Notes: a model not told the origin generated them from the sequence alone. Shown: positions 44,599-64,000, counted from the first letter of the stretch. The stretch is DNA of 64,000 nucleotides from an uncultured Acidobacteriota bacterium (GCA_963832495.1 CAWHUF010000005.1:1813766-1877765); one strand, 5' to 3'. A program made the numbers and translations.

Positions 44599-44624
44599 CC
44601 CGGGCTTTTCCTAAAGCCTCACCC

Positions 44625-44655
44625 AGCCGCGGGGGTTCGGGACGTACGTCCGGAC
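44625..44655. terminator. bidirectional terminator-like GC hairpin between convergent glsB-like and SGNH genes
   Basis: CGGGGGTTCGGGACGT-ACGTCCGGACCCCCG near-perfect dyad. Confidence 0.4.
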
Positions 44656-44731
44656 CCCCGCTCGGCATGTAGACGCAAATTCCTCCCGCAAACGATTGGA
44701 GAGAGGGCCCCCGAAAGGGGGTTTGAATTTC

Positions 44732-45979
44732 TTACATTGCCGGGGTGCGGGTGCTCTTCAAGGCCTTCCGGACCCCTTCCGGAGTCGTCAGCTCCTGTTC
44801 CACGAGGACATCGCGGATCCACTGCGCAGCCATCTGGTTGCCGGCTCTGGGGTAGTGGAGGAAGTTCTTCTTCGCCATCTCCGCCTCGGGGTCATAACGC
44901 GCGAAACCATCCGCTAGATCGATCACGCGATACCCCCGGCGCCGCAGATCGTCGAGGAGCGGCTGATAGGTGACCTTCTCGCCCTCATGGCGCAGGCGCA
45001 CGTCCCGCCGCTGCGGAAAGAGGACGATCACGGGCAGAGACCCGTTGCCCAGGGCCTCGCGGTAGAACTGATCGAGCACCCGGAAGCTCACCTGGTAAGC
45101 CTCCGAGCGGGTGTTGTAAAGGCCGTTCGGCAGCAGGATGGGCTGGTTGAAATACTGGTTCCCGACCACCCGCGCAAAACGTACCGAGGGCAGGAAGTCG
45201 AAGCGGCTCCGCCGGTTGTTGCGCTGGTAGTAGTAGTCATGCTCGCCCAGGCGCGGCAGCCAGGCTTCCGGATCTTTCAGGAGGGCGCGGTACTCGCCGA
45301 TCGACCGGATGGGATTTTCGTGCAGCACCAGCTCGCCGCCTTGGATGGCGAAGCGGGGCTTGCTGAAGGGCAGGCCGCTCCTGGCGAAGTAGAACGGCCG
45401 GAAGGTGTTGACCATCCGGCTGATGTTCTCGCGACATCATGCCGATGAGCACGATGGGCGGGCGGTACGGCTCGCCCTCGCGCCGGTAGCGCAGCAGGGC
45501 CTGATCCGGGGCCGAGCCGGGGATGCCGAAGTTGATCACCTCCAGCCCCGGCTCCAGCTCCTCCAGCCGCTCCTCCCAGGTGAAGCCCGTGGGTACCCCG
45601 CTCGCGTGGGTGAAGGAGTCGCCGAAGGCCGCGACGCGCACACGGTCCGCCGGCGGCGCCGGACGCGTACTCCCGGGTGGCCCGGATCCCCTTGCTGTTG
45701 GCCTTGTACTGAGGCCGGTTGCCGTTAGGACCGGATGGTCCACCCCAGCTCCGGGTCGAACATCATGTAGGACGAGGTGTCGGCGATCTGGGCCTCCAGG
45801 ATGCCCCGGTGCTTGCCGCTCAGGTCTTCGACCGCGGTGGGCTTCTGGTATTCCAGGTTCTTGTACCGCTTGAGCGCCCAGAGGCCGCCCAGGCAGGCGA
45901 GCTCCACCACCAGCCAGAAAAAGGCGAGGAGGATGAGTGAGAACAGGGCCTTCTTGCGAGGGGAGATCGTCGCGGCCAT
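44732..45979 (-). CDS. membrane-anchored SGNH/GDSL-type hydrolase (AlgX/AlgJ-like esterase/acyltransferase fold), multiple frameshifts
   Basis: N-terminal TM anchor MAATISPRKKALFSLILLAFFWLVVELACLGGLWAL. Block I VRVAAFGDSFTHASGVP. The C-terminal part ...LPVIVLFPQRRDV...GYRVIDLADGFARYDPEAEMAKKNFLHYPRAGNQMAAQWIRDVL sits in a third frame. Pieces are distributed over ORFs 45725..46324, 45237..45992 and 44732..45415. Confidence 0.5.
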
Positions 45980-46112
45980 AGGGAGCGCGCATTCTACCCG
46001 ATGCCGCAGCAAGGGCTTGGCATCAGGAGGGAGCCGATCCTGACAGCCAGCAGGTTTGAGACGGGAGCTTGCATTGATTCTCCAGGCATATTGACGTACA
46101 GTAATAAGCAGG

Positions 46113-46508
46113 TTGTCGCAGCTCAGATTTGAAGGAGGCTTCATGCAGCTCCAGCCCAAGATCCGCCGTTTCCCTCGCATCCCGGCCGAGCACGCGGTCA
46201 TGGTCCGCCTCCTTGGAGTGAAGGCCTTCGAGGAGTTCGCCCGCACGCGGGTGATCGGTCCCGGGGGGTGTATGTTCGTGAGCGAGGAGTCGCTCGGCTT
46301 CGGCTCGCTCATGGAGCTGTCCATCGCGGTGCGCGGCCGGGTGGTGAAGACGGACAGCCGGGTCGTCTACGAGATCCGCAGGAGCCCGACCGAGCACCAG
46401 GTGGGCGTCGAGTTCCTGCGCATCAGCCCGGCGGACCGCTCGTACATCGAGTTGGTCGTGGCGGGCCGCAAGAGCGGCGGCACGGCTCCGGTCAGCCTGC
46501 CAGCCTGA
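46113..46508 (+). CDS. PilZ-domain (c-di-GMP-binding) protein
   Basis: RRFPR (RxxxR) motif followed by the D/N-x-S-x-G-G-like VIGPGGCMFVSEESL motif, in a 120-130 aa single-domain protein. Confidence 0.6.
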   Translation: MSQLRFEGGFMQLQPKIRRFPRIPAEHAVMVRLLGVKAFEEFARTRVIGPGGCMFVSEESLGFGSLMELSIAVRGRVVKTDSRVVYEIRRSPTEHQVGVEFLRISPADRSYIELVVAGRKSGGTAPVSLPA

Positions 46509-46969
46509 AGCTCCAGGAACGCCGTCCCCGGGATCGGGTTGAACCGGTAGGGTGGGATCTCGCGGAACCCGAGGGAGCGGTAGAGATCCTGCGCCCGCCC
46601 CATGGACGGAACGGTGTCCAGCCGCATGTGGGAGTAGCCGATCTCCCGCGCCTCCGCGATCACCGCTTCAGCCAAGGCCTTGCCGATCCCAAGCCCCTGG
46701 AAGTCCGGCCGCACGTAGAGCCGCTTCATCTCGCAGACGCCCTCTTCGATCTCCCGCAGCGCCACGCATCCTGCAGCCCGGCCGTCATGGAAGGCGAGGA
46801 GCAGCCGTCCCCGCGGCGGGGCGTAGGCCCCGGGTAGTCCCGCAAGCTCGGCCTCGAAGTCCTGGAACTCCAGATCGAACCCCAGCGAGACGGCGTACTC
46901 CTCGAAGAGGGCGCGGGCCTCCCGCAGGTGGTCCGGTGTCTCGGCCTGCAGGATCTCGGTCGGCGCCAT
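46367..46969 (-). CDS. GNAT-family N-acetyltransferase
   Basis: MAPTEILQAETPDHLREARALFEEYAVSL...GCVALREIEEGVCEMKRLYVRPDFQGLGIGKALAEAVIAEAREIGYSHMRLDT...LYRSLGF, i.e. acetyl-CoA motif A (Q/R-x-x-G-x-G/A). The supplied C-terminus overlaps the convergent PilZ gene by ~140 bp, so the true stop is uncertain and may hide a frameshift. Confidence 0.65.
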   Translation of the reverse strand: MAPTEILQAETPDHLREARALFEEYAVSLGFDLEFQDFEAELAGLPGAYAPPRGRLLLAFHDGRAAGCVALREIEEGVCEMKRLYVRPDFQGLGIGKALAEAVIAEAREIGYSHMRLDTVPSMGRAQDLYRSLGFREIPPYRFNPIPGTAFLELQAGRLTGAVPPLLRPATTNSMYERSAGLMRRNSTPTWCSVGLLRIS

Positions 46970-47060
46970 GGCAATATCATGGAGGAGAACGGAAGGTCTT
47001 GCCAGACGGCTCGCGGGACCGGCGAGACCCCTGACGAGGCCCGTCTCCCAAAGGAAGTTG

Positions 47061-47438
47061 CCGGCGAGAGGCAAAATGAGCCCTGAGATTGGTTCGTTCG
47101 CTCCGGCGAGCCGTTCGTTCCGCTCGGCGGGAGGCCGGTTCCGGCCGGCGAGAGACCCGTTCCGACCGGCGAGCCGATTTTTGACCCGGGCGAGCCGTTC
47201 GTTCCAGCCGGCGAGAGGCTCGTTCCGGCCGGCGAGTCAGGTTTGGGGTCAGGCAGGCCGCTCGTTCCGGTCGGCGGACGACCCGTTCCGGTTCAAAGAT
47301 GAATCGTTCCGGCCGGCGAACGATCTTTAAGGTCCGGCGAGCCACTCGTTCCGGTCGGCGGACGGCTCGTTCCGGTCGGCAGGCCAGCTTTTAGGCCGGT
47401 TAGGCCTTTCGTTCCTTCCGGCGAATCGTCATGGCGGT
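47061..47438. repeat. 17 to 18 copies of an exactly 21-bp degenerate tandem repeat (consensus CGGCGAG-N4-(C)TCGTTCCGG(C/T))
   Basis: Unit starts at 47103, 47124, 47145, 47166, 47187, 47208, 47229, 47250, 47271, 47292, 47313, 47334, 47355, 47376, 47397... (period 21). The array lies in the divergent intergenic region between the GNAT start (46969, minus) and the MNT start (47462, plus). It is open in two frames only because of GC richness; in-frame stops appear in degenerate units. Confidence 0.7.
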
Positions 47439-47461
47439 ATCATGGACGAGAACAGACGGCC

Positions 47462-47764
47462 ATGCCACTGTCTGAGAGGACTATGGACGAAGGAATCCGA
47501 GATCTGCTACAGCGAGGTGCGGCCCTCCTCCGAGACGCCGGGGCGCGGGAGGTCTACGTCTTCGGGTCCCTGGCAGCGGGCAAGGCGCGGGAAAACTCCG
47601 ATGTGGACTTGGCGGTCACGGGTCTGCCCCCGGAGAATTTCTTCACTGCAATGGCCCGTCTGGAGGATCTGTTCGATAGGGGAGTAGACCTGGTAGATCT
47701 GGACGACACGACTCCCTTCACCGCCTATCTCAGACAGAAAGGGCTCCTGCGGCGTGTGGCCTGA
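47462..47764 (+). CDS. minimal nucleotidyltransferase (MNT; HI0073/MntA-like antitoxin-type)
   Basis: VYVFGSLAAGKARENSDVDLAV = GS-x9-SDxD polymerase-beta-type NTase motif, ~100 aa. Confidence 0.75.
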   Translation: MPLSERTMDEGIRDLLQRGAALLRDAGAREVYVFGSLAAGKARENSDVDLAVTGLPPENFFTAMARLEDLFDRGVDLVDLDDTTPFTAYLRQKGLLRRVA

Positions 47765-48236
47765 CCTCAAGGATCAGATCGCGGTCGAAGAGGCCCAATT
47801 ACAACAACTGCTGGATGTCCACCGGCCCCTCTTGGAGAAGTGCCGGTTGGAGGAGCCGAACCCGATCGAGCTGTCGGCTCTGGCGGCGCTGCTGCATTCC
47901 TTCTACACGGGATTGGAGAACCTGTTCCGGCGAGTGGCCGTGGAAATTGACGGCGGGATCTTGCAAGGAGATCAGTGGCACCGGCGTCTCCTGCAGCAGA
48001 TGACCGAGCCTGGAGAGGCGAGACCCGCCGTCATCTCCTCGGAGCTCTACGATCGGCTCCATCCCTATCTCCAGTTCCGGCACGTCTTCCGGAATTCCTA
48101 TTCCTTCCAGCTCCGCTGGGACAAGATGGCGCCGCTCGTCCTCCAGTATGAAGAGACTTTCGCTGCTTTTCTGGCGGAGATCGCCGCTTTCTCAGAGCAG
48201 ATGGACAAGCGGTACGGACCATTCGACGTCCTATAG
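47754..48236 (+). CDS. HI0074-family nucleotidyltransferase substrate-binding protein (HEPN-like partner of MNT)
   Basis: Overlaps the MNT stop by 11 nt (operon). Four-helix pattern with ...ALLHSFYTGLENLFRRVA... and FRNSYSFQLRWD (compare the RN.TSH.Y family motif). Confidence 0.55.
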   Translation: MWPDLKDQIAVEEAQLQQLLDVHRPLLEKCRLEEPNPIELSALAALLHSFYTGLENLFRRVAVEIDGGILQGDQWHRRLLQQMTEPGEARPAVISSELYDRLHPYLQFRHVFRNSYSFQLRWDKMAPLVLQYEETFAAFLAEIAAFSEQMDKRYGPFDVL

Positions 48237-49250
48237 GCTCCTCTTCTCCAACCACCAGCTCCGGGCCACGAAAAAGAGACCTGTAAAGCCGATCATCGCA
48301 AACAGCGGAGAGACCAGCGCAAAGGCGTACTGGCCGTCGATCTCCCGGTTCAGCACCGACTCGGAGGGATACTCGGGATTGACGTAGCAGGGAATCCGGG
48401 TGTCCGGCGGCAGGCTCTGAACCACTTTTTCGGTCTCCTCGCTGTCGCCGACCGAGTTGCCCGAGAACTTGTAGCGGTTGGATTTGTACTGCCGCCCGTC
48501 AGCCGTATAGGTATAAACAACGTCGACGCTGTAGGTGGGGCCGCTTTCGCTGTCGCCCGGGTAGACGTGCACCGCGCTGCTGCGGATGATGCACGGCCGG
48601 GCCGGCCAGGATTTCGCCTCGACCGCCTTGAAAAAGACCGGGACGAAGTAGGACGCGAGGCCGAGACCGAAGATCAGGAAGAATCCGAAGAAGATGGTCA
48701 TGATGCCCCGCGGCCCCAGGCGGCTGAAGGCCTGGTTCACCCGAGCTCCCACCGCCTCCGCCCCGCGAGGCTGCCACAAGCCGTAGAGGCCGAATCCGGT
48801 TACGGCCGCGATCAATACAGAGAAAGGAAAGAAAAGGTAGACCCAGAAGCCCGGGCGCCGCAGCATGGATGACGACGGCTTCCGCGGGTTCACGTAGCAG
48901 AGGGCGCGAGACCCCGCCGGATAGCGGTCGACCAGGCGCTGGGCTTCTCCGATGTCTGTAGAGCTGGAGGGGTCGAACCGGTGGACGTCTCCGGTGTAGC
49001 GCCAGCCGCCGACGGTATAGCTGTAGAGGACCTGGAAGCTATAGAACTTGCCCGTATCCTCCGCGTGCTCCTCCACATTGCTGCTGAGGATGGTGCAGTC
49101 CCTCTCCTCCCAGGCATACGTTGCCGCCATGCGGAAGAAGCTGTAGACCAGGAGACCGCTGAACCACACCGTCCCCACGAAGAAAGGCAGGAGAAAGAGG
49201 CTGCTGAAGATCTTGCCCGGCAGGCCGGGGGGATTCCTTCCCATAGCCAT
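48231..49250 (-). CDS. membrane protein with two tandem DUF3592 domains
   Basis: Two repeats of TM-helix plus beta-domain, with ...CTILSSNVEE...YSFQVLYSYTVGGWRYTGDVHRF...CYVNP and ...CIIRSSAVHVY...YSVDVVYTYTADGRQYKSNRYKF...CYVNP. Confidence 0.6.
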   Translation of the reverse strand: MAMGRNPPGLPGKIFSSLFLLPFFVGTVWFSGLLVYSFFRMAATYAWEERDCTILSSNVEEHAEDTGKFYSFQVLYSYTVGGWRYTGDVHRFDPSSSTDIGEAQRLVDRYPAGSRALCYVNPRKPSSSMLRRPGFWVYLFFPFSVLIAAVTGFGLYGLWQPRGAEAVGARVNQAFSRLGPRGIMTIFFGFFLIFGLGLASYFVPVFFKAVEAKSWPARPCIIRSSAVHVYPGDSESGPTYSVDVVYTYTADGRQYKSNRYKFSGNSVGDSEETEKVVQSLPPDTRIPCYVNPEYPSESVLNREIDGQYAFALVSPLFAMIGFTGLFFVARSWWLEKRSL

Positions 49251-49265
49251 CCCCTCCCAGGAAAA

Positions 49266-50389
49266 CTACTGCGGTAATCCCCTTCCTGTCACCAGATAGG
49301 TCGCGAAGCTCCCCAGCCAGTGGCCGCCCTCGTAGTGCTCGCCGGTCACGGACGCCAGGCCCGACTCCCGGTGGGCGGCGGCCGCGGCGCGCAGGGCCGG
49401 CAGGCGGGGATCGCTCGAGGGCAGGCCGGCGGTGATCCCCTCCAGCATCCAGGCCCGGGAGAGGTTGAGGCCGTCCAGGTGGGCGAGCTTGCCGTCCGTG
49501 GGATCGGTGACAACGGCGGGCGTGAGCCAGTCCCTGGCCGTCGCCGAATCTGCGGCAGGAAGGCGGAGAGCCAGGTGGCGAATTCTCCGGTGGGCAGGAT
49601 CCGGCGCATCAGGTCGGCCTCGCCGAGGCAGGGGGAGAGGAAGTCCTCGCCCGAGGGCTCGTAGGCGAGCGGGCAGGCCTTGTCTTTGCCGATAGAGCTC
49701 GCGGGCGCGCGTCTCGAAGAGGGTCTGCGCGTCCCGGTCGCCGGATCCCCGCGCCCAGTCGAGCATCAGGCCGAAGCGCGAAGGCGGTCTGGTTGTGCTC
49801 GCCCGTGCGGATGGGGTGGGAGAGCTTGGGCAGCCACGTCCGGATGCGCCCCGCCGCGGCCTTGACCAGCGGCTCCAGCGCCTCGGCCCAGCGCGCGGGC
49901 CTGGGGATCGTCCCACTCGCGGAGCTCGGCCGCGAGCTGGAGCAGCCAGGCGAGGCCGTAGGGCCGCTCGAAGGTCGCTCGTCCCGTGCCCTCCAGATAG
50001 CGCACCTCGGCCGCGATGTTGGCGGCCGTGAGGCTCTTGTCGAGCGCCTCCCGGGCCTTGGCCGCGAACGGCGCGTCGGGGAACTGGCGGGCCAGCCGCG
50101 CCAGCAGCCAGTGGCCGTGCACGGCCGAGTGCCAGTCGTAGCAGCCGTAGAAGGCGGGGGTCAGCTCGCGCGGCGGCTTGACGTCGGCGTCGCCGTTCAT
50201 CACGTGGGCGATCTTGTTCGGATACTCCTTGTGGACGCAGGCGAGCGCCAGGTTGGCGAGACGCTCGGCCGGCGGCCTCGATGGAGCGGGGGTGGCAGGG
50301 TACGGCGGCGGCCATGACCGGCAAGAGGAGAGCAGCGGCGAGAAGCAGGGAGAGCCCGTCGGAGGATCATGGCCGCAGGATGGTACCAT
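49266..50389 (-). CDS. DUF2891-family protein (at least 3 frameshifts)
   Basis: N-terminal piece (49766..50389 frame) ...RLANLALACVHKEYPNKIAHVMNGDADVKPPRELTPAFYGCYDWHSAVHGHWLLARL...; C-terminal piece (49266.. frame) ...DWLTPAVVTDPTDGKLAHLDGLNLSRAWMLEGITAGLP...VTGEHYEGGHWLGSFATYLVTGRGLPQ*. The middle lies in a third frame. Confidence 0.5.
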
Positions 50390-50409
50390 CCGCGCCCGGG
50401 AGGGGCCCC

Positions 50410-51078
50410 ATGCCTGAGACGCCCGAGACGCGGGAGGCTCTGCAAGCTATTCGCCGCGGGAAGAGATCGCCCACAGCGTGATCCACGGCGTGGGGATCCT
50501 GCTGAGCATCGCGGGCCTCATCGCGCTGATCGTGGTGGCGCGCCGCACGGGCGATCCCTGGCACGTGCTGGCCTGCGCCGTCTACGGCGCCACGCTGATC
50601 CTGCTCTACCTCGCCTCGACCCTCTACCACAGCATCCCGTCCCCGCGGCTCAAGCCCCTCCTGCGGGTGCTCGACCACTCGGCGATCTACCTGCTGATCG
50701 CGGGCACCTACACGCCCTTCACCCTGATCAGCCTGCGCGGGACCCTGGGGCTGGACGCTCTTCGGCCTGGTCTGGGGCATGGCCTTCCTCGGCATCGCCC
50801 TCAAGGTGGCGGCCATCGGCCGGTTCCGGTGGCTGTCGATGGTCCTCTACCTCGGCATGGGCTGGCTCGTGCTCGTGGCCCTGGAGCCGCTCCGGCTGGC
50901 GGTGGACGCAGGACGGCGTGGTGCTGCTCGTTCCTGGGCGGCGTCGCCTACACCTCGGGAACCCTCTTCTACGGCTGGCGCCGCCTGCCGTACCACCACG
51001 CGGTCTGGCACGCTCTTCGTGCTCGCGGGCAGCGTGCTGCACTTCTTCGCTGTCTTGCTCTACGTGGTCCCGGTATAA
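50410..51078 (+). CDS. hemolysin-III / PAQR-family (YqfA-like) channel protein, multiple frameshifts
   Basis: MPETPETREALQAIRRG|EEIAHSVIHGVGILLSIAGLIALIVVA...YGATLILLYLASTLYHS...LRVLDHSAIYLLIAGTYTPFTLISLRG, then ...MAFLGIALKVAAIGRFRWLSMVLYLGMGWLVLVALEPL... and ...LFVLAGSVLHFFAVLLYV in other frames. The first junction is explained by GGGG read as GGG. Confidence 0.55.
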
Positions 51079-51129
51079 CCCAGCCCCTGCCTTTTCCGTA
51101 TAGAGAGGGCCATTGAAAGGAGATCCCCT

Positions 51130-52910
51130 ATGCGGGCCAATTTGCGGCTTCCATTGTCATTGATCACTCTCTTGCTGGTTTCCACCGCCGCCTGGGCCGC
51201 CGACAAGCCCAAGGACGACCTCCAGGCGCGGCGCGACGCCCTGAACAAGCTGCTCGCCGAGCAGTGGGAGTACAACCTCTCCACCTCCCCCGAGTTCGCC
51301 TCCATCCTGGGCGACAAGCGCTGGAACGACCAGATCTCCGACTTCTCCCAGGCCGCGATCGACGCGGACCTCGCCAAGTCGCGCGAGTTCCTGACGCGGT
51401 TCGAGGCCATCGACACCACCGGCTTCCCCGAGCAGGAGGCCCTCAACAAGGAGCTGATGGTGCGGGGCCTGAAGGAGGGGATCGAGGGCGCCAGATTCAA
51501 GGGCTGGCTGATGCCGGTGACCCAGATCTCCGGCATCCACCTGATGGTCCCCCAGTTCCCGCCGCTGCTCAGCTTCACCACCGTCAAGGACTACGACGAC
51601 CTGATCACCCGCTACAGGAAGATCCCCAGGGTCTTCGACCAGACGATCGGGCACATGCGCGCGGGCATGGCCGCCGGCCTGATGCCGCCCAAGTTCCTGC
51701 TGGAGAAAGTCGTGGGGCAGGTCGAAGGGATCGCCGCCATGAGCCCGAGCAGTCGCCCTTCGCCGAGCCGCTCGCCAAGTTCCCCAAGGACATCCCCGAG
51801 GCCGAGCAGAAGCGCATCCGCGAGGAGATGCTCGCTGCGATCCGCGACTCGATCCTCCCGGCCTACGCCAGTTCGGCAAGTTCGTGAAGGAGGAGTACCT
51901 CGCCCAAGGGCCGCACCGAGCCCGGCATGTGGTCCCTGCCCGACGGCGAGGCCCGCTACGCCTGGGCCGTCCAGCAGTCCACGACCACGAAGCTGACGCC
52001 GGAGGAGATCCACCAGATCGGCCTGCGCGAGGTGGCGCGGATCGAGGGCGAGATGCTGGAGATCGCGAAGAAGCTCGGCTACCAGGACCTCAAGAGCTTC
52101 AACGCCGCGATCGAGGACGATCCCAAGCTGAAGGCCCGGTCGCGCCAGCACATCCTCGATCTCTACCGGAAGTACATCGACCAGATGTACACCAAGCTGC
52201 CGGAGCTGTTCGGCCGCCTGCCCAAGGCCAAGGTCGAGGTGCTGCCGGTCGAGGAGTTCCGCGAGAAGGAGGCCGCGGGCGCCCAGTACAACCCGGGCAC
52301 GCCGGACGGCTCGCGGCCCGGCCGGGTGATGGTGAACACGGGCGACGCCACCTCGCGCAAGACCATCTCCATGGAGTCCACCGCCTACCACGAGGGCGTG
52401 CCCGGCCACCACATGCAGCTCACGATCGCCCAGGAGCTGCCCGAGCTGCCGCCGTTCCGCCAGCAGGGGGGCTACACCTCCTTCGCCGAAGGCTGGGCCC
52501 TCTACTCCGAGCGCCTCGGCAAGGAGGTCGGCTTCTATCAGGATCCCTACAGCGACTACGGCCGCCTGCAGGACGAGATGCTGCGCGCCATCCGCCTCGT
52601 GGTGGACACCGGCTTCCACTACAAGCGCTGGACCCGCGACCAGGTGGTGCAGTTCTTCCACGACCACTCGGCCATCGACGAGGTCGACGTGCAGAGCGAG
52701 ACCGACCGCTACATCGTCTGGCCCGGCCAGGCCCTCGCCTACAAGATCGGCCAGCTCAAGATCCTGGAGCTGCGCGAGCGGGCGAAGAAGGAGCTGGGCG
52801 CGAAGTTCGACATCCGCGAGTTCCACGACGAGGTCCTGGGCGCCGGCGCGCTGCCGCTCGACGTGCTGGAGGAGCGGATCGACGCGTGGATCGCGGCGGA
52901 GAAGGGGTAG
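51130..52910 (+). CDS. secreted DUF885-family protein (two frameshifts around 51740-51930)
   Basis: Signal peptide MRANLRLPLSLITLLLVSTAAWAADKP. DUF885 N-terminal helical region. C-terminal part has YHEGVPGHHMQL (HE..PGHH) and ...IVWPGQALAYKIGQLKI. Confidence 0.65.
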
Positions 52911-56436: not shown

Positions 56437-56518
56437 AACTGTGACCCTTACGGGGGCGCAAAAATCGCGGTCCCGCTAGGGACCACCGTAGGTAGCCAGG
56501 GATTTCAATCCCTGGCTA

Positions 56519-57681
56519 GTGTAGTGCGTCCCAGAAGGCGCAACTTTTGTTATCCTCCGGAGTCGCAGACACCGAGAGGAGGAACATGCGCGTCGCGCCC
56601 CCAGTCATTTTTTCCGAGGAGCAGCGTGAGCAGATTGAGAAGCTGTCGCGAGGACGGTGTGTGGCCGTGCGTGTGGTAGAGAGAGCGAGGATCATTTTGC
56701 TTTGCGCTGAAGGCAAGCAGAACCGAGAGATCGCGGAGCTTCTCGGGACTACGCGCCGGACCGTCGGTCTTTGGCGCCGCCGCTTTGTCCAGAACGGGAT
56801 CGCTGGCATCGAGAAAGACGCTCCCCGTCCAGGGCGGCAGAAGCCGCTTGCCGAAGAGGTCGTTCAAGAGGTCGTCCGCAAGACCACACAAGAGCAGCCT
56901 CCCAAAGGGACCCATTGGAGCAGTCGGAGCTTGGCCAAGGTGATGGGGTTAAGTGCGAGCACTATCCTTCGGGTCTGGAAGCGCCACGGCTTGAAACCCC
57001 ATCGGGTGCGGACTTTCAAGCTCAGCAAGGACCCGAAGTTCGTCGAGAAGTTGGAGGACATCATTGGTCTGTACCTCAGCCCCCCAGAGCACGCGTTGGT
57101 GTTCTCGGTCGACGAGAAGAGTCAGATCCAGGCTCTCGACCGGACGCAGCCTGGACTTCCGCTGAAAAAGGGGCGCTGCGGCACGATGACTCATGACTAC
57201 AAGCGCCATGGAACGACGACCTTATTTGCAGCCTTGAACACGCTGGACGGGACGGTGATCGGCACCTGCATGCCGAAACATCGCCACCAGGAGTGGATCA
57301 AGTTCCTGAGCCTCATCGATCGGAAGACTCCCGAGGACAAGCTCATTCACCTGATCGCGGACAACTACGCCACCCACAAGCATCCGGAAGTCCAGGCCTG
57401 GATGGCCCAGCACCCACGGTTTACGATTCACTTCACTCCGACGAGCGCCTCATGGCTCAACATGGTCGAGCGCTTTTTCCGCGACCTGACCCAGAAGCAA
57501 TTGCGTCGAGGAGTCTTCCGCAGTGTTGAGGAACTGATCGCGTCCATCAATGCCTACCTTATTCAGCACAATGCAGATCCGAACCCCTTCGTGTGGACAA
57601 AGTCAGCCAACGACATCCTTGAGAAGGTCACCCGCGCCCGCCAAGCTCTGGTTAAGACCACCTCTTTGTGACGCACTACAC
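56519..57681 (+). mobile_element. IS630-family insertion sequence with TA target duplication
   Basis: TIRs GTGTAGTGCGTC (56519-56530) and GACGCACTACAC (57670-57681). Flanked by TA at 56517-56518 and 57682-57683. 1163 bp, single transposase ORF. Confidence 0.75.
56586..57671 (+). CDS. IS630-family (Tc1/mariner-like) DDE transposase
   Basis: N-terminal HTH (RCVAVRVVERARIILLCAEGKQNREIAELLGTTRRTV), then the DDE domain with FSVDEKSQIQAL (D1), LIADNYATHKH (D2), and ...SWLNMVERFF (E). Confidence 0.8.
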   Translation: MRVAPPVIFSEEQREQIEKLSRGRCVAVRVVERARIILLCAEGKQNREIAELLGTTRRTVGLWRRRFVQNGIAGIEKDAPRPGRQKPLAEEVVQEVVRKTTQEQPPKGTHWSSRSLAKVMGLSASTILRVWKRHGLKPHRVRTFKLSKDPKFVEKLEDIIGLYLSPPEHALVFSVDEKSQIQALDRTQPGLPLKKGRCGTMTHDYKRHGTTTLFAALNTLDGTVIGTCMPKHRHQEWIKFLSLIDRKTPEDKLIHLIADNYATHKHPEVQAWMAQHPRFTIHFTPTSASWLNMVERFFRDLTQKQLRRGVFRSVEELIASINAYLIQHNADPNPFVWTKSANDILEKVTRARQALVKTTSL

Positions 57682-57740
57682 TAGGTGGCGGCGCTGAACA
57701 TTGCTGAGGCCGCCTCTAGCCTTCGGCATTCTCGCCTTCA

Positions 57741-59291
57741 TCACGACCCCAGCACCGCCTCCGCCGCCAACCACCCGGCCGTCGGCCGCACACCCCCGCC
57801 CGGGTGGCTGCCGCTGCCGCCCAGGAAGAGGCCGGGGACGGCCGTCCGGTACCGCGCCGCGGAGGGCGACGGGCGCATCACCAGGAGCTGGTCGAGGGCC
57901 AGCTCGCCGTGGTGGAGCTGGCCGCCGGTCAAGGCGAAACGGGTCTCCAGGTCGGCGGGAGTCAGGACCTCCCGCGCCACGATCCGCTGGCGCACGTCCG
58001 GGGCGTGCTGCTCGAGAACCGAGATCACGGCGTCGCCCAGGCGCTCGCGGGCTTCCTCCGTCCAGCCGCCTTCGAGCTTGTAGGGCGCGAAGCTCGCGAG
58101 GATGGAGACGACGTGGTGGCCGGCGGGCGCGAGGCTGGGATCGGCGACGGTCGGGACGCGGATCTCCAGGTTCGGACGCTCGGAGAAGCGCCGGTATTTG
58201 ATGGCGTCGAAGGCGCGTTCGAGGTCGTCGACGTGGCCGCCGCCGATGCGGATCGCCTCGTCGAGCCGGCCGTTGCTTCCCGCCAGCTCCAGGGGACCCG
58301 AGAGCGCCAGGTGGACCTTGGCCGCGGTGCCCCGGCTGCGCAGGTGCAGGAATTCCTCTTCGATCCGGAGCGGCAGGGTTCCCGGCGCGAGCAGAGAGAG
58401 CATCGTGCGCTTGGGATCGGCGGAGGAGAGGACGACCGGCGCGTCGAGGGTCTCGCCGGAAGCGAGGGTGACCCCCGAGACCTTGCCCCGGTCGAGGCGG
58501 ATGCGCTTGACCTCGGCGCCGGTGCGCACCGCGGCCCCGGCGCCGCCGGCCGCGGCGAGGAGCGCCTTGACGAGCGCCGGAGGACCACCCTGCAAGGCCT
58601 CGCCGCCCGCGCACTCGCGCAGCAGGAAGTTGGTCACGGTGCCGGCCGACCACGGGCCCGACCAGGTGGAGGCGACCGCGGGCGCGGCGAGCGCTTCGAC
58701 CAGCAGCGGCGTCTCGAACCGTTCGTTCAGGAAATCGGCGACGCACATCGGCGCCACGCGCGCCAGCTCGACGAGGTCCTGCCGGCTGATCTTCCACAGC
58801 GCCAGGCCGCGCTGCGCGAGCTGCCAGAGGTCGCCGGCCGATCCGGGCGTCAGGCGCGGCGGCGCTTCGTCGAGGATGGCGCTCAGGAGCGGCGTGATCC
58901 GGCCGAGGAAAGCGTGCAGGCGCTGGTAGCTCTCGGCGTCGTGCTGGGAGCGCTGGCCGATCGCTTCGGCGGCCCCGGAGGCCTCGCCGGGAAGGAGGAT
59001 GCCCGGCCCGTTCGCTTCCGCGATGTACGTGGCCGGAGGCTTGCGGAAAGCGAGGCCCTGCTTGACGAGGCCGAGCCGGTCCGCGACGGCACGGGGCACG
59101 AGGCCCTCGTCGTGAAGCAGGCCGGGGACGGAGTAGCCGGGGTGAAACTCGTGCTTCGCCGACAGGCCCCCCGGCGCTTCCGCGCGTTCGAGGACCAGGA
59201 CCTTGCGTCCCGCCGAGGCGAGCCTCGCCGCGGCGGCGAGGCCGTTCGGACCGGCGCCGATGACGATGACGTCAAGGACCTCGAAGCCCAT
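57741..59291 (-). CDS. CrtI/phytoene-desaturase-family FAD-dependent oxidoreductase (copy B)
   Basis: MGFEVLDVIVIGAGPNGLAAAARLASAGRKVLVLERAEAPGG (GxGxxG Rossmann). Ends ...FLGGSGSHPGGGVRPTAGWLAAEAVLGS, the conserved CrtI-family C-terminus. The start overlaps the upstream gene's stop (ATGA). Confidence 0.75.
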   Translation of the reverse strand: MGFEVLDVIVIGAGPNGLAAAARLASAGRKVLVLERAEAPGGLSAKHEFHPGYSVPGLLHDEGLVPRAVADRLGLVKQGLAFRKPPATYIAEANGPGILLPGEASGAAEAIGQRSQHDAESYQRLHAFLGRITPLLSAILDEAPPRLTPGSAGDLWQLAQRGLALWKISRQDLVELARVAPMCVADFLNERFETPLLVEALAAPAVASTWSGPWSAGTVTNFLLRECAGGEALQGGPPALVKALLAAAGGAGAAVRTGAEVKRIRLDRGKVSGVTLASGETLDAPVVLSSADPKRTMLSLLAPGTLPLRIEEEFLHLRSRGTAAKVHLALSGPLELAGSNGRLDEAIRIGGGHVDDLERAFDAIKYRRFSERPNLEIRVPTVADPSLAPAGHHVVSILASFAPYKLEGGWTEEARERLGDAVISVLEQHAPDVRQRIVAREVLTPADLETRFALTGGQLHHGELALDQLLVMRPSPSAARYRTAVPGLFLGGSGSHPGGGVRPTAGWLAAEAVLGS

Positions 59292-60884
59292 CAGACCGCC
59301 CTCTTGTCGAGCATCGTCTGGGCGCAGAGAGCGCCCGGCGCGCCCATGATGCCGCCGCCGGGGTGGGTGCCCGACGCGCACATCCAGAGGTTGCGGACCG
59401 GCGTCTTGTAGCGGCTCCAGCCGGCCATCGGGCGCAGGAAGGCGAGCTGCTCCAGCGACAGCTCGCCGTGGAAGATGTTGCCTTCGGTCAGGCCGTAGAT
59501 CTGCTCCAGGTCCCAGGGCGTGAGCACCTGGCGGTGCAGGATCCGGCTCTTCAGGTTCGGCATGTACTCCGAGAGCGTGTCGATGACCGCGTCGCCGAAG
59601 GCCTCGCGCTGGTTCGGCCAGTCCGCGGCCCCTTCCTTCAGGTGGTAGGGCGCGTACTGGACGAAGATCGACATGACGTGCTTGCCCGGCGGGCGCCACC
59701 GTCGGATCGGTCATCGACGGGATGAGGACGTCCATGAACGGCCGGCGGGAGAAGGCGCCGTACTTGGCGTCGTCGTAGGCGCGCTCCAGGTAGTCGATCG
59801 ACGGCGCGATCGTGATGCCGCCCTGCAGGTGGGGGCCATAGCCCGGCAGGCAGGCGAGCTCCGGCAGGCCGTCGAGCGCCAGGTTCACCTTGCCCGAGGA
59901 GCCGCGCATCTTGAACCGCTTGACCTGCTGGGTGATCTCGGGATCGAGGTGCTCCTCGCCGACGAGCTTCAGGAACGTGCGGTGCGGATCGAGCCCCGAG
60001 ATCACGGCCTTGGCGCGGATCTCGTCGCCGTTTTCGAGCACGACGCCCGCGGCCTGTCCGTTCTTCATCAGCAGATGGGCGACCGGCGCCTCGGTCCGGA
60101 TCTCGACGCCCAGCGCGCGCGCCGAGCTGGCGATGGCGTTCGCGATGGCGCCGGTGCCCCCCTTGGGCAGTCCCCAGGCGCGGAACGAGCCGTCGATCTC
60201 GCCCATGTAGTGATGGAGGAGGACGTAGGCCGTGCCGGGCGAGCGCACGCCGAGGAACGTGCCGATGATGCCGGAGATCGCCATCGGCGCGATGAGCTGC
60301 TCGCACTCGAACCACTCCGAGAGGAAGTCCACCGCGCTCATCGTCATCATCTTGACGTTGGCGAAGAGCCAGGCGTCCCCCTGGCCGCGGATCTGTTTGC
60401 CGAGGCGCGCGATCCGCAGCAGCTCCCGCGGGTCGCGCGACAGCGGATCGGGGGCCGGCTCGTCGATCAGCGGCTTGATCAGGCGGCCGAGCTCGGCCAT
60501 CTCCTGGCCGAAGCGCTTGTAGACCTCCGCGTCGCGCGGCGAGAACTGGGCGATCGAGCGGCGCGTCCGCTCGGGATCGGTGTCGCGCATCAGGTACCGC
60601 CCGTCCGGGAACGGCGTGACGGTCGCTTCCAGCGGCAGGATCTCGTAGCCGTGGCGCGGCAGGTCCAGGTCGCGGATGATCCAGGGCCGCAGCAGCGAGA
60701 CCACGTAGGAGCAGCAGGTGTACGTGAAGCCGGGGTAGATCTCCTCGCTCGTGGTCGCGCCGCCGACCTGATGCCGCCGTTCGAGCACCAGCACCTTGCG
60801 CCCGGCCTTGGCGAGATAGGCCGCGCAGACCAGGCCGTTGTGCCCGGCGCCGACCACGATGGCGTCGTATTTCGTGCCCTTCAT
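59291..60884 (-). CDS. CrtI/phytoene-desaturase-family FAD-dependent oxidoreductase (copy A; frameshift at about 59690)
   Basis: MKGTKYDAIVVGAGHNGLVCAAYLAKAGRKVLVLERRHQVGG. The C-terminal piece is ORF 59291..59674 (...WMCASGTHPGGGIMGAPGALCAQTMLDKRAV). The start overlaps the gcvT-like stop (ATGA). Confidence 0.7.
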
Positions 60885-62097
60885 GGCTTGCGCTTCCTCT
60901 CCGGGTCGAAGAAGGGGGGCGGCGCGACGGTCGCGGTGACCTTGCGCCGCTCGTATTCGACCGTGTGCTCGATCTGGAGCTTCGTCCCCTTCGCCTCGAG
61001 CCGGGGCGGACCGAGGCGATCGCCAGATATTTCTTGAGGATCGGCGACCAGGTGTGGCTGGTCGCCTGGCCGACCTGGCGGCCGTCCTCGTCATAGACCG
61101 GCAGGGCGTCGCGCCGCGCGGTCGCCGGCAGGCTCGGCGGCAGGTTGAAGCTCGCGTAGAGCGCTTCGAGCTCCTCCCAGCTCACCTCCAGGCCGACCAG
61201 ATGCCAGGCCGGGCCGCGCTTCATCTCGGCGGCGATGGCGTCGCGGCCGATGAAGTTGCCGCGCTCGAGATCGACCATCCAGCCGAAACCCAGCTCGAGC
61301 GGCGTCGACTTGCGCGATTCGAGGACCACCTTGTGCGAGCTGAAGTAGTCGACGCCGAGCAGGATGAAGCCGGCTTCGATCCGCACCACGTCGAGCGCGT
61401 CGAGCCCCGCGGGCTCGATGCCGTGCGGCTGGCCGGCGGCCATCAGGGCGTCCCAGACCGCCAGCGCGTCCTCGCGCTCGACCCAGACCTCATAGCCCAG
61501 GTCGCCGGTGTAGCCGGTGCGGCTGATCCAGACCGGGATGCCCGCCCAGCCTGGGCAATTGTCGCGCGGGTGACGCCGAAGAACTTGAGCGCGTCGAGGC
61601 CGGCGTCGCCGCCGCCGCCGCTGACATCGCGCAGGATGGCGCGGGACGTGGGGCCCTGGAGCGCCAGGGCCGCCAGGCGCGCGCTGGAATCCTCGATCGT
61701 CACGTCGAAGCCGCGGGAGAGCGCGTGCAGCCAGTGCAGGGTCGGATCGGCCGCGGTGACGCGGAAGTGCGTCTCGCCCAGCCGGGAGACGGTGCCGTCG
61801 TCGATCACCTTGCCGTCGTCGTCGCACCAGCAGCTGTAGGCGACCCGGCCCACCTTGAGCTTGGACACGTCGCGCACCATCATGCGGCGCGAGGAGGGCC
61901 TGGGCGTCCGGCCCGGAGACCTCGTACTTGTAGAGCGGCGTCACGTCGAGCAGGCCGGCCGATTCGCGGAAGGCGAAGTACTCGCGCTCGTGCGACGTGT
62001 CGTAGCTGCAGACGGCGCAGTAGCCGGCCCAGTCCTTCCAGCGGTAGCTGGTGCACAGCGACTGCGTGCGCTCGTGGAATGGCGTAGGGATCGGCAT
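60881..62097 (-). CDS. aminomethyltransferase (GcvT/DmdA/LigM) family folate-binding protein (at least 2 frameshifts)
   Basis: MPIPTPFHERTQSLCTSYRWKDWAGYCAVCSYDTSHEREYFAFRESAGLLDVTPLYKYEVSGPDAQALLA... (N-terminus). Middle piece 61443..61883 (...GRVAYSCWCDDDGKVIDDGTVSRLGETHFRVTAADPT...). The C-terminus ...VGQATSHTWSPILKKYLAIASV... ends ...IEHTVEYERRKVTATVAPPPFFDPERKRKP*. Confidence 0.6.
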
Positions 62098-62175
62098 CGG
62101 TATCGTGTCGGCTCCGCTGAAGGCGGCGGGAGTGTACCACCGAATCCGGCGGGCGATGCTAGAATTCCACCCGCC

Positions 62176-63311
62176 ATGAGACCACGCACCGCCTTCGGCC
62201 AGCACACCCTCTCCGGCGAATACTTCACCTCCGAGGAGATCTTCCGCGCCGAGCGCGAGCGGATCTTCCACCGCTCCTGGCTCCTCGCCGGCCACGTCTC
62301 GCAGCTCGCCTGCGCCCGGCAGCTTCTTCCTCTTCGAGCTCGACCGGGAGAGCGTCATGGTCGTCCGCGACGGCGAGGGGACGGTCCGCGCCTTCCACAA
62401 CCTCTGCCGCCACCGCGGCAGCCGCCTCTGCCTGGCCCCGCACGGCGAGCTCGGCCACGCCCTCCAGTGCCCGTACCACGCCTGGACCTACGGGCTGGAC
62501 GGAGCCCTGCGCGCCGCGCCCAACATGGCCGAGGTCGCCGGCTTCGACTCGCGGGATCATCCGCTCAAGCCGGTCGCGCTCGCCGACTGGCAGGGCCTGC
62601 TGTTCCTGAACCTCGCGTCCGGACCCGGTCCCCTTCGCCGAGGCCCTGCCGGGGCTCCAGGGCAAGTTCGAGGCCTGGCGGCTCCCCGAGCTGCGGTCGG
62701 TCCACCAGAGCGTCTACGACGTCGAGGCCAACTGGAAGCTGTTCTTCCACAACTACAGCGAGTGTTATCACTGCCCGAAGGTCCATCCGCACCTCAACAA
62801 GCTGACGCCCTACCGCAACACCGAGAACGACCTCGACGAAGGGCCGGTCCTGGGCGGGCCGATGTGGATGAGCAACCCCGAGGGGAGCATGACGATCGAC
62901 GGCGGGCGCTGCGCCGCTCCCCTTCGCCGGGCTCTCCCCCGAGGAGCGCGGGCGCGTCTACTACTACACGGTCTTCCCGAGCGCCTTCCTGTCGTTCCAC
63001 CCCGACTACGTGCTGGTCCACCGCGCGCAGTCGCTCGGCCATCGAGCCGCACCCGCATCGTCTGCGACTGGTACTTCCATCCGGACGCGATCGCCGCGCC
63101 GGGCTTCGATCCCCAGCCCGCCATCGACTTCTGGGACCTGACCAACCGCCAGGACTGGGAGCTGTGCGCCAACGCCTACAAGGGCGTCTCCTCGAACGCC
63201 TGGGAACCGGGACCCTATTCGGAGCTCGAAAGCCAGCTCGCCGCCTTCGACCGGCAGTACCTGCGGGCCCTCGCGCCGGACGCTCCGGCAGCCGTTCGCC
63301 GGCGGGCGTGA
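62176..63311 (+). CDS. Rieske [2Fe-2S] non-heme-iron oxygenase alpha-subunit-like protein (at least 3 frameshifts)
   Basis: MRPRTAFGQHTLSGEYFTSEEIFRAERERIFHRSWLLAGHVSQLA... Rieske motif CRHRGSRLC...CPYHAW. The catalytic domain has ...NYSECYHCPKVHPHLNK... (His ligands) in ORF-frame 62565..; C-terminal ...RIVCDWYFHPDAIAAPGFDPQPAIDFWDLTNRQDWELCANAYKGVSS... in ORF 62862..63311. Divergent from the gcvT-crtI-crtI operon. Confidence 0.6.
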
Positions 63312-63403
63312 AGAGACCAGAGCCGTCCCTGCACCTTCCGCCCCCGAGTATCTAAGACCTTGGTCCGATTTACCCGCGAGTAACTCGCTGGCATTCTCCT
63401 CAA

Positions 63404-64000
63404 GTGGAGAGAAATGTGAGATGGCAAGTCCTGGTGCTCGCCCTGGCGGCAGCTCCGGTCCTGGGCGACGAGCTGTTCCTCAAGGGCGGCGGCAGGGTCA
63501 CGGGCGAGATCGTCAAGGAGACCGACGACGGCGATGACCGTCGACATCGGCGCGGGGAACATGACCGTCCCGAAGTCGTCCGTGGTGCGGGTCGAGAGGA
63601 GCGCCTCGCCGCTGCAGCAGTACCGCGCGCAGGCCAGCGATCCTCGCGCCCGAGGACGTCGAGGGCTGGAGGAAGCTGGGCCGCTGGGCGGCGGGCCAGG
63701 GGCTCACGAAGCAGGCTCGCGAGGCCTTCACCAAGGTGAAGGCCATCGTGCCCGACGACCCGGAGGCGAATCGCGCCCTCGGTCTGGTTCTGCTCGACGG
63801 CCACTGGGTCACCGAGAAGGAAAGCTTCACCGCCCGCGGTTTCGTGCAGTTCGAGGGCGAATGGATGACGCCGGCAGAAAGGCAGGCGATCCTGGGGGAG
63901 CGGCAGGCCAGCGAGGAGGCGGACCGCCAGGCGCTGGACGCCCAGATCGAGGCCGACCAGGCGGCGCGGGCTGAGCAGGAGGCGCGCGAAGACGCGGAGC
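63404..64000 (+). CDS. secreted hypothetical protein with coiled-coil C-terminal region (partial at window end; frameshifted)
   Basis: GTG/ATG start near 63404-63418, then signal-like RWQVLVLALAAAPVLG...; downstream frames give ...MTVDIGAGNMTVPKSSVVRVERSASPLQQYRAQAS and ...EGWRKLGRWAAGQGLTKQAREAFTKVKAIVPDDPEANRALGLVLLDGHWVTEKESFTARGFVQFEGEWMTPAERQAILGERQASEEADRQALDAQIEADQAARAEQE. Confidence 0.35.

Follow-up and report, generated by a model that had tools for sequence, protein, structure and literature searches.

What reaction is carried out by a bacterial gene cluster in which a relative of the glycine cleavage T-protein is encoded together with two paralogous flavoproteins and a Rieske oxygenase? 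The cluster lies at positions 57741–63311 of a 64,000-nucleotide stretch of DNA (the window) from an uncultured Acidobacteriota bacterium. The initial annotation described it as three co-directional minus-strand genes with a divergent Rieske gene, and they are found as claimed. It also recognized no named pathway in this arrangement, in agreement with a literature search that returned neither a pathway name nor a paper. What could be established for the locus is the content and order of its genes, how they are joined at the coupling junctions, that they are conserved as a unit, and which characterised proteins are their nearest relatives.

Layout and conservation of the cluster

The operon starts with a gene for a GcvT-like protein (60881–62097, minus strand; ~405 residues after frame repair), followed by the genes for two FAD oxidoreductases, the PYROXD2-like CrtA (59291–60884, minus strand; ~530 residues after repair of one 1-nt insertion) and its divergent paralogue CrtB (57741–59291, minus strand; 516 residues, an intact ORF). 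CrtA and CrtB share 35% identity, which bears out the paralogy noted initially. A putative divergent control region (62098–62174, unstranded), measuring 77 bp instead of the 78 bp first given, separates the GcvT-like gene from the gene for the alpha subunit of a Rieske non-haem-iron oxygenase (62175–63311, plus strand; ~380 residues after repair of five 1-nt insertions). ATGA overlaps had been claimed at both junctions within the operon. The one at 60881–60884 is present, with the CrtA start overlapping the GcvT-like stop, but the one at 59288–59291 is not: the CrtA/CrtB junction reads GTCTGATGGGC, in which the CrtA stop codon TGA (59293–59291) and the CrtB start codon ATG (59291–59289) together form TGATG, with a 1-nt overlap at 59291. 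TGATG is also present at this position in the five closest loci, and judged by its sequence the junction is still of the coupling type. The control region contains a TAGAAT box (62160–62165, plus strand), 9 nt 5′ of the Rieske ATG, and a TGGTACACT box (62139–62131, minus strand) upstream of the GcvT-like gene. An alignment of 24 intergenic regions reveals that both boxes, which are putative promoter elements, are kept in closer relatives; a generic sigma-70 scan of the spacer gave no match.

Dozens of genomes contain this gene set, and the cluster is therefore not a product of chance. The GcvT-like, CrtA and CrtB genes are contiguous in every locus with enough flanking sequence, in Thermoanaerobaculia, Bacteroidota and other genomes, and most junctions in the other genomic contexts viewed have stop/start overlaps of 1 to 4 nt. 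CrtA is 57–94% identical across the Acidobacteriota and Bacteroidota loci, with values of 71–90% among 40 proteins including relatives from outside the Thermoanaerobaculia, and of 57–68% to the Bacteroidota and Elusimicrobia copies; CrtB is the least conserved of the four gene products (43–90%). The neighbourhood comparison thus upheld conservation of the cluster as a unit, and the lack of conservation that had been named beforehand as speaking against it was not observed. Among the 62 loci with a whole GcvT-like gene, 50 have the Rieske gene linked to it, in two phyla: it is divergent and upstream in 45, co-directional and upstream in one (L055), and co-directional and downstream in four Bacteroidota loci, where it lies inside the operon with gaps of 86–114 nt. 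That the linkage arose repeatedly and independently speaks for a function in common. No Rieske gene is present nearby in five Thermoanaerobaculia loci with 5–7 kb of upstream sequence (L008, L011, L017, L027 and L036), nor in five other genomic contexts. The conserved core is the three-gene operon, with the Rieske gene as a frequent but dispensable add-on. Beyond these four genes no conserved neighbour was found across 54 loci, which indicates that the module is self-contained. The contexts of the core operon that were examined contain unrelated housekeeping genes, and no transporter, regulator or folate-recycling gene, so that a catabolic island is not established. Housekeeping surroundings and the frequent absence of the Rieske gene are unusual for a catabolic pathway, an observation that counts against N-demethylation.

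Comparison with five homologous loci located ~10 frame-breaking 1-nt indels in the Rieske, GcvT-like and CrtA genes, all within 4 kb. They include five insertions in the Rieske gene (~62312, 62618, 62915, 63040 and 63045), three breaks in the GcvT-like gene (~61888, ~61550 and ~60999) and one insertion in the CrtA gene (~59694); CrtB, with a length of 1.55 kb, is the only intact ORF of the four. One further break lies past the Rieske gene, within the final 600 bp of the window. The breaks might be real mutations in a decaying pseudogene array beside an IS630-family transposase; this would bear on the condition of the present copy, whatever the function of the family. In agreement with such decay, the homologues examined are unbroken except for a few long-read MAG loci (L006, L041, L063 and L067), an intact DDE_3 transposase adjoins CrtB, and the crude frameshift density is ~1.5 per kb here versus a window average of ~0.4 per kb. 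We nevertheless consider decay unlikely. Breaks of the same kind affect many unrelated genes across the window, with equal density at 44–52 kb, and assembly error is therefore the more likely cause. In addition, the indels are nearly all single-base insertions without stop-codon or large-deletion decay, CrtB is untouched, the repaired proteins are still 88–94% identical to their orthologues, depending on the gene, and the pattern fits a locally under-polished long-read assembly.

Relatives of the four proteins

Pfam searches support the family assignments made initially (aminomethyltransferase, FAD oxidoreductases and Rieske oxygenase), while all four proteins stay below the curated family cut-offs. 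The GcvT-like protein contains the folate-binding domain and the barrel of the glycine cleavage T-protein (GCV_T, 220.9 bits, E = 2e-65; GCV_T_C, 46.5 bits), and its sequence displays IDD and TGYTGDLGYE motifs, the residues of which presumably have the roles ascribed to them in T-proteins. Of the NCBIfam models, that of TMAO demethylase (Tdm) is matched best, over its C-terminal half (303 bits at model positions 388–760, against a cut-off of 1100), and the top PDB match of the protein comprises residues 411–784 of Tdm (9Q5A, 201 bits), compared with 154 bits for true T-proteins, 114 bits for SoxA and 106 bits for DMGO. The C-terminal domain of Tdm is a better match than T-proteins, SoxA, DMGO, DmdA or LigM, and Tdm-type DUF1989+GCV_T proteins are among the nearest non-orthologous relatives; a Pfam search of the GcvT-like protein itself found no DUF1989 domain. 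The scores remain below the GcvT equivalog cut-offs (TIGR00528, 177.5 versus 235.85 bits; PRK00389, 232.4 versus 300 bits) and below those for DmdA, LigM and DesA (126.9, 77.2 and 75.8 bits versus 410, 580 and 800). Neither gcvH nor gcvP is a conserved neighbour across the 54 loci, no GCV_H or GDC-P domain occurs in the Pfam-annotated contexts, and a search for natural fusions of GcvT with a flavoprotein yielded none, which counts against N-demethylation.

The Rieske protein comprises a Rieske domain (66.7 bits) and a Ring_hydroxyl_A domain (139.1 bits). It has the features of an alpha subunit, i.e., a CXH...CXXH motif and a catalytic domain with an iron-binding His pair, present as CRH...CPYH and NWK..N..ECYHC....HP, of which CRH...CPYH and ECYHCPKVHP align with Stc2. 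Its top PDB matches are Stc2 (3VCA; 182 bits, E = 1.6e-52), 4QUP and 3N0Q, and then CntA (6Y8J, 135 bits), whereas the best NCBIfam model is GbcA (NF058607), matched with 220.3 bits in two stretches. Stc2, GbcA/BmoA and CntA have the same pair of domains and the same CXH...CXXH and NWK...E-C-Y-H-C-x4-H motifs, and by its nearest relatives the Rieske protein would belong to the quaternary-amine N-demethylase group. It differs from GbcA in falling short of the equivalog cut-off of 670 bits and in having no adjacent gene for a GbcB/CntB-type reductase; no dedicated reductase or ferredoxin gene accompanies the Rieske gene among the conserved neighbours in the 54 loci, and the lack of a nearby reductase is a further point against N-demethylation.

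Pfam assigns Amino_oxidase and NAD_binding_8 domains to CrtA, and Amino_oxidase, DAO and NAD_binding_8 domains to CrtB. The best curated match of both is the CrtO model NF045689 (327.8 bits for CrtA and 206.6 bits for CrtB, with an equivalog cut-off of 1000 bits). On the model of the phytoene desaturase family (CrtI; TIGR02734, crtI_fam) they score 147.8 and 130.8 bits, below its cut-off of 238.1, and the earlier description of the flavoproteins as CrtI-like is thus too loose: they sit with PYROXD2 and CrtO-type proteins. Mouse PYROXD2 reaches a similar CrtO score (276 bits), which implies that a match to this model marks a broad subfamily, and not a function. CrtA and PYROXD2 also score alike on crtI_fam, and they align over their full length with 40% identity (358 bits, mouse protein), compared to 33% identity and 182 bits for CrtB. 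A neighbour-joining tree, midpoint-rooted and without an outgroup, places PYROXD2 with CrtA and not with CrtB; orthology of CrtA and PYROXD2 is suggested. In a fold search with the predicted CrtA structure, carotenoid desaturases rank first, with 4REP and 4DGK (gamma-carotene desaturase and CrtI) on top, and flavin amine oxidases second, the latter (monoamine, putrescine and nicotine oxidases) being general fold matches only. The model is poor (pLDDT <50) in the putative substrate loops 203–234, 466–487 and 504–511. By sequence, too, the nearest solved structure to the flavoproteins is CrtI (4DGK). By structure and by HMM, CrtA and CrtB are therefore most closely related to carotenoid enzymes, which act on C–C/C–H bonds of lipids and not on amines, and this counts against N-demethylation.

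PYROXD2 is a mitochondrial flavoprotein in human and mouse, and animals do not make carotenoids. The mammalian PYROXD2 proteins searched, for which precomputed Pfam domains were used, contain no GcvT domain. Human genetics points to the metabolism of N-methyl-lysine and methylamines: variants of PYROXD2 are associated with urinary trimethylamine and plasma dimethylamine, trimethylamine being higher where PYROXD2 expression is lower (PMC3169529), and one PYROXD2 SNP accounts for ~50% of the variance in plasma N6-methyllysine and for 48% of that in N6,N6-dimethyllysine (PMC8109053). These data are genetic associations, transferred across 40% identity to CrtA, and fit an enzyme that consumes N-methyl amines. 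The bacterial cluster, widely conserved yet uncharacterised, offers a testable lead to the function of PYROXD2.

Proposed function and alternatives

The locus may constitute a tetrahydrofolate (THF)-coupled oxidative N-demethylation module built on a new type of flavoprotein; this is the best reading of the locus, and we regard it as evenly balanced between right and wrong. In this scheme the FAD proteins CrtA and CrtB would turn tertiary and/or secondary amines into iminium ions by oxidation of the N–CH3 bond, perhaps each acting in one demethylation step or both together as a heteromer. The leaving C1 unit would pass to THF bound by the GcvT-like protein, giving 5,10-methylene-THF without a release of free formaldehyde, in the same way as the GcvT-like domains of dimethylglycine oxidase/dehydrogenase, sarcosine oxidase and TMAO demethylase capture C1 units on THF. 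A flavin amine oxidase cannot attack a quaternary nitrogen; where its gene is linked, as it is here, the Stc2/GbcA-like Rieske oxygenase would take the first methyl group off a quaternary trimethylammonium or betaine-type nitrogen. Jointly the four proteins would convert R-N+(CH3)3 to R-NH2. Like this chemistry, any physical complex, the electron acceptor, a reductase partner for the Rieske protein and the substrate are inferred, and as substrates N-epsilon-methylated lysines, glycine betaine/dimethylglycine/sarcosine and tri- or dimethylamine are candidates. Of the methylated-compound catabolism that was suggested at the outset, the relatives of the proteins (Stc2, GbcA and CntA, and the C-terminus of Tdm) retain the demethylation, narrowed to N-methyl or quaternary amines, but a catabolic role is not established. 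A methoxy-aromatic substrate, which had also been considered, is disfavoured by the ~76-bit scores on the LigM and DesA models and by a Rieske protein that is not VanA-like.

The proposed logic, flavin-dependent N-methyl oxidation combined with C1 capture on THF by a GcvT fold, is that of dimethylglycine oxidase/dehydrogenase, sarcosine dehydrogenase and heterotetrameric sarcosine oxidase. Those enzymes use a DAO-type flavoprotein, whereas the flavoproteins of the cluster are of the PYROXD2/CrtO type (amine-oxidase/CrtI fold class), occur as two paralogues with a separate folate polypeptide and have no SoxB, SoxD or SoxG equivalents. The GcvT-like protein has its closest characterised relative in Tdm, which combines DUF1989 with a GcvT-like domain that conjugates released formaldehyde to THF. 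Unlike Tdm, the cluster lacks the DUF1989 catalytic domain, and the demethylating partner would be a flavoprotein.

The carotenoid relatives of CrtA and CrtB raise the alternative that the cluster serves to modify lipids, carotenoids or isoprenoids. Here CrtA and CrtB would be CrtO/CrtI-type desaturases or ketolases of a hydrophobic polyene or the like, which the Rieske protein would hydroxylate, with an accessory C1 role for the GcvT-like protein. The leading position of CrtO among the curated matches (328 and 207 bits), of gamma-carotene desaturase and CrtI among the fold matches of the model and of 4DGK among solved structures favours this alternative, and the fold and FAD-binding motifs are held in common. 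We consider it very improbable, since both flavoproteins fall far short of the CrtO (1000) and crtI_fam (238) cut-offs, animal PYROXD2 has a similar CrtO score, crtB/crtE/crtY-type genes are not among the conserved neighbours, and the Rieske protein groups with quaternary-amine demethylases. Folate-binding and betaine-demethylase-type partners are foreign to carotenoid pathways, and we know of no such pathway that uses a folate-binding T-protein homologue.

A reversed flow of C1 units, in which the GcvT-like protein donates the methylene group of 5,10-methylene-THF and the flavoproteins reduce it, would amount to a housekeeping methylation or aminomethylation with a loosely related Rieske gene, in analogy to the folate/FAD enzymes ThyX and TrmFO. 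T-protein chemistry is reversible, and the high conservation of the core operon as well as its housekeeping surroundings without catabolic accessories agree with such a role. Nothing points positively to an acceptor substrate, however, and the independent linkages to an Stc2/GbcA-type gene and the PYROXD2 metabolite associations fit removal rather than addition of methyl groups, which makes this reversal very improbable too. That the Rieske gene is a mere neighbour, functionally unrelated to the three-gene operon, would explain the loci in which it is absent, but is hardly credible in view of its linkage in two phyla and three arrangements, its position inside the Bacteroidota operons and the conserved boxes in the divergent spacer.

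The N-demethylation reading can be extended to the PYROXD2-type family as a whole, which would then consist of N-methyl amine demethylating oxidoreductases. In this extension, which we think doubtful, the bacterial module would be complete and yield the free amine from N-epsilon-trimethyllysine or from a different trimethylammonium compound; the Rieske protein would remove the first methyl group, and the other two would be taken off by CrtA and CrtB and captured on THF. If true, human PYROXD2 would encode the enzyme responsible for a long-orphan activity, that of N6-methyl-lysine oxidase (epsilon-alkyllysinase, EC 1.5.3.4).

Organization and integrity of the locus

In the six-frame reading of 57600–64000, within a window of ∼66% GC, the minus strand of the locus carries three co-directional genes, encoding a GcvT-like protein (60881–62097) and two flavoproteins, CrtA (59291–60884) and CrtB (57741–59291), and the plus strand a divergent gene for a Rieske oxygenase (62175–63311), as described in the initial annotation. 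The family assignments made there agree with Pfam, which identifies GCV_T and GCV_T_C in the GcvT-like protein, Amino_oxidase/NAD_binding_8 in both flavoproteins, and Rieske and Ring_hydroxyl_A in the oxygenase, and CrtA and CrtB are indeed paralogous (35% identity). The GcvT-like gene overlaps CrtA by ATGA at 60881–60884. The second ATGA overlap, placed at 59288–59291, is not found at the CrtA/CrtB junction, which reads GTCTGATGGGC, the genes joining as TGATG with one shared base at 59291, and the divergent spacer measures 77 bp instead of 78 bp.

An alignment of 24 divergent spacers reveals two -10-like boxes that are conserved in closer relatives, TAGAAT on the plus strand (62160–62165) and TGGTACACT on the minus strand (62139–62131), upstream of the GcvT-like gene. 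The Rieske ATG follows the TAGAAT box by just 9 nt, a distance suggestive of a nearly leaderless transcript. A generic scan of the divergent region for sigma-70 consensus promoters returned no sites, and neither a riboswitch nor any other Rfam family was found in or around the cluster. GC-rich hairpins are present in many GcvT-like leaders (5′UTRs), for which no consensus structure was obtained.

Among the four genes only CrtB is an intact ORF. Alignment with five homologous loci reveals about ten frame-breaking indels in the other genes, nearly all of them single-base insertions: five in the Rieske gene (∼62312, 62618, 62915, 63040 and 63045), three in the GcvT-like gene (∼61888, ∼61550 and ∼60999) and one in CrtA (∼59694). 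All protein comparisons relied on intact orthologues or on sequences with repaired frames. When codon usage is traced along the entire window by a Viterbi pass, comparable switches of frame without apparent cause turn up in many unrelated genes; about 23 lie outside the cluster by a crude test within the window, in 44000–52900 and 63428–64000 and at ∼40686 and ∼42201, and their density at 44–52 kb resembles that of the cluster. The affected genes include a hemolysin-III-like gene (50460–51069, plus strand), an SGNH-like gene (44744–45979, minus strand), a DUF885-like gene (51184–52904, plus strand), a minus-strand gene in five pieces (49290–50260) and tandem paralogues at 39–43 kb. This distribution suggests that the accuracy of the assembly is uneven along the contig. 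Since similar switches occur in unrelated genes, the breaks in the cluster are read as the product of a locally under-polished long-read assembly and not of operon-specific decay; real pseudogenisation of the window's copy, with which the many breaks in three of its genes would also be compatible, is rather unlikely.

The tandem paralogues belong to an array of four minus-strand genes (35534–42996), whose products of ∼600 residues have N-termini resembling signal peptides; no Pfam family matches the intact copy (35534–37301), and copies 3 and 4 are frame-broken. Elsewhere in the window, one or more large minus-strand genes (26454–30411) contain long runs of GGxGxD-type repeats (RTX-like, calcium-binding) and appear to switch frame at ∼26727 and ∼27139. 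Adjacent same-frame stop-to-stop ORFs separated by one stop codon occur at 1851–3884, 13989–16106, 20247–22670, 37297–41133 and 50728–51993, and may represent either normal gene neighbours or erroneous in-frame stop codons. An intact IS630-type transposase gene (DDE_3 and HTH; 56547–57671, plus strand) abuts CrtB at its 3′ end, and the stretch just upstream of the transposase gene (56496–56545) weakly resembles the Acido-Lenti-1 RNA motif (21.4 bits against a gathering score of 37; E 0.19). A DDE_3 transposase likewise lies near the core genes in one homologous locus, L088.

Conservation of the gene cluster

With CrtB as the query, a search of genomes sampled once per species yielded 80 loci. 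Most of these are found in MAGs of Thermoanaerobaculia/Acidobacteriota, with CrtB up to 90% identical, and the remainder in Bacteroidota and one Elusimicrobia-labelled MAG, with CrtB 43–47% identical. According to tblastn with the four repaired proteins, the GcvT-like gene, CrtA and CrtB are contiguous at every locus with enough flank, and a Rieske gene is present in 50 of the 62 loci in which the GcvT-like gene is complete. A lack of conservation as a unit, named in the initial annotation as a refutation, is thus not observed. The Rieske gene is divergent upstream in 45 loci (gaps mostly 48–350 bp), co-directional upstream in one (L055) and co-directional downstream in four Bacteroidota loci, where all genes form a single four-gene operon with overlapping or closely spaced members. 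Five additional genomic contexts, reached via CrtA homologues, contain the three-gene core with no Rieske gene close by. These counts and contexts indicate a conserved core made up of the three-gene operon, to which the Rieske gene is a common addition that has become linked more than once. Chance adjacency of the Rieske gene, with which the contexts that lack it would agree, is very improbable beside its presence in most loci.

All-against-all clustering of flanking ORFs did not reveal any further conserved neighbour, be it a transporter, a regulator, a reductase or an enzyme of folate metabolism or recycling; the other clusters common to at least 10 loci are antisense shadow ORFs of the same four genes. 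In one Bacteroidota MAG (L075) the four-gene operon is immediately followed by a saccharopine-dehydrogenase-family gene (12951–14090), an isolated and anecdotal pointer to lysine or polyamines; this gene is absent after the operon in L072, L078 and L079. In one lineage (L082–L084) an ETF-ubiquinone oxidoreductase gene (4129–5811), not conserved near the core in other loci, lies ∼3 kb upstream of the core operon and could take up the electrons of a flavoprotein dehydrogenase.

Relatives of the encoded proteins

All four proteins score below the curated NCBIfam cut-offs. The best model for the Rieske protein is GbcA, the glycine betaine monooxygenase (220 bits; cut-off 670). Its best matches in the PDB are the stachydrine demethylase Stc2 (182 bits), with which its Rieske and iron motifs line up, followed by 4QUP, 3N0Q and the carnitine monooxygenase CntA (135 bits), while aromatic ring dioxygenases score below 100 bits. 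The GcvT-like protein is most similar in the PDB to the C-terminal domain of the TMAO demethylase Tdm (201 bits), followed by genuine T-proteins (154 and 140 bits), the sarcosine oxidase subunit SoxA (114 bits), dimethylglycine oxidase (106 bits), DmdA-like proteins (88 bits) and LigM (53 bits). It also scores 303 bits with the NCBIfam TMAO demethylase model, and Tdm-type DUF1989+GCV_T proteins are among its nearest non-orthologues in a search of 1.8 billion representatives. The LigM score and the proximity of the Rieske protein to Stc2 and GbcA argue against methoxy-aromatic O-demethylation of the LigM/VanA type, one of the options considered initially. A search for natural GcvT-flavoprotein fusions, which would have served as Rosetta-stone evidence, among the representatives and in Pfam returned only Tdm-type, HTH-fused and duplicated GcvT proteins; the sole apparent fusion, P0355, was rejected, being itself a frameshift-ridden fragment.

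CrtA (148 bits) and CrtB (131 bits) miss the phytoene desaturase family cut-off of 238 bits, and their best NCBIfam model is CrtO (328 and 207 bits; cut-off 1000). Their sole notable solved relative by sequence is CrtI (4DGK, 104 bits). A fold search with an AlphaFold model of a 91%-identical CrtA orthologue (pLDDT 74.8, pTM 0.83) ranks carotenoid desaturases first and flavin amine oxidases second, without discriminating between the two classes. A search with CrtA gives at least 8000 matches, and the family has generic database names such as "phytoene dehydrogenase-like" and "NAD(P)/FAD-dependent oxidoreductase". As candidate reductases for the Rieske protein, CrtA and CrtB were set aside, since their fold class would comprise a single FAD-binding dinucleotide domain and no Fe-S/ferredoxin module.

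CrtA resembles mammalian PYROXD2, a mitochondrial flavoprotein. A PYROXD2 query sequence matched named PYROXD2 proteins (ape) at 98% identity, and all comparisons were made with the mouse protein from the database (P0224). CrtA shares 40% identity with mouse PYROXD2 over its full length (358 bits), and CrtB 33% (182 bits). In a crude neighbour-joining tree, rooted at the midpoint and built without an outgroup from three PYROXD2 proteins and seven CrtA/CrtB pairs, PYROXD2 joins the CrtA clade. PYROXD2 also matches the CrtO model (276 bits), so that a CrtO match indicates membership of a broad subfamily rather than ketolase activity.

The mitochondrial protein PYROXD2 is described as having no assigned biochemical function (PMC8777681). 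Urinary trimethylamine and plasma dimethylamine are associated with its locus, lower expression going with higher trimethylamine (PMC3169529). For N6-methyllysine and N6,N6-dimethyllysine, its common variants rank among the strongest metabolite QTLs on record, a missense SNP accounting for ∼50% and 48%, respectively, of the variance of these two compounds in plasma (PMC8109053). N-methylpipecolate and trimethyllysine are also associated with PYROXD2 (PMC8109053; PMC13352909). Such a metabolite pattern would be expected if an N-methyl amine-consuming enzyme were lost.

A candidate folate-coupled N-demethylation system

There is roughly an even chance that the FAD, GcvT-like and Rieske proteins remove methyl groups from nitrogen in a tetrahydrofolate-coupled manner, a reading to which three independent lines point, i.e., the relatives of the Rieske protein, those of the GcvT-like protein and the genetics of PYROXD2. 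The FAD proteins would oxidise the N-CH3 groups of tertiary and secondary amines, and the GcvT-like protein would take the C1 unit onto tetrahydrofolate. Quaternary nitrogen is beyond the reach of flavin chemistry, and the Rieske enzyme, where present, would act on it. Gene composition, coupling, conservation and the closest relatives are observed; the reaction, the substrate, the electron acceptor, any complex and the Rieske reductase missing from the cluster are all inferred. Carotenoid- or lipid-type chemistry, to which the CrtI match and the fold ranking could point, is improbable beside the missed desaturase cut-off and the relatives of the partner proteins. Little probability is likewise given to C1 transfer running in the opposite direction.

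The N-demethylation scheme follows the same logic of C1 capture on tetrahydrofolate as dimethylglycine oxidase, sarcosine oxidase and Tdm, and by likely activity the cluster is probably closest to such folate-coupled N-demethylases. It belongs to none of the known ones, however, as its flavoproteins, a paralogous pair, come from a different family and its folate module is a separate polypeptide; a literature search for this gene combination found nothing. If the proposal is correct, the cluster would represent a third architecture of folate-coupled N-demethylation, next to the DAO-type enzymes for dimethylglycine and sarcosine and Tdm, and would be relevant to methylated-amine turnover in soil Acidobacteriota and in Bacteroidota. 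The main interest lies in the huge unannotated family and in PYROXD2: a function would be provided for the very large, cross-phylum and now generically named CrtA-type family, and the bacterial gene context would offer a concrete, testable biochemical hypothesis for human PYROXD2.
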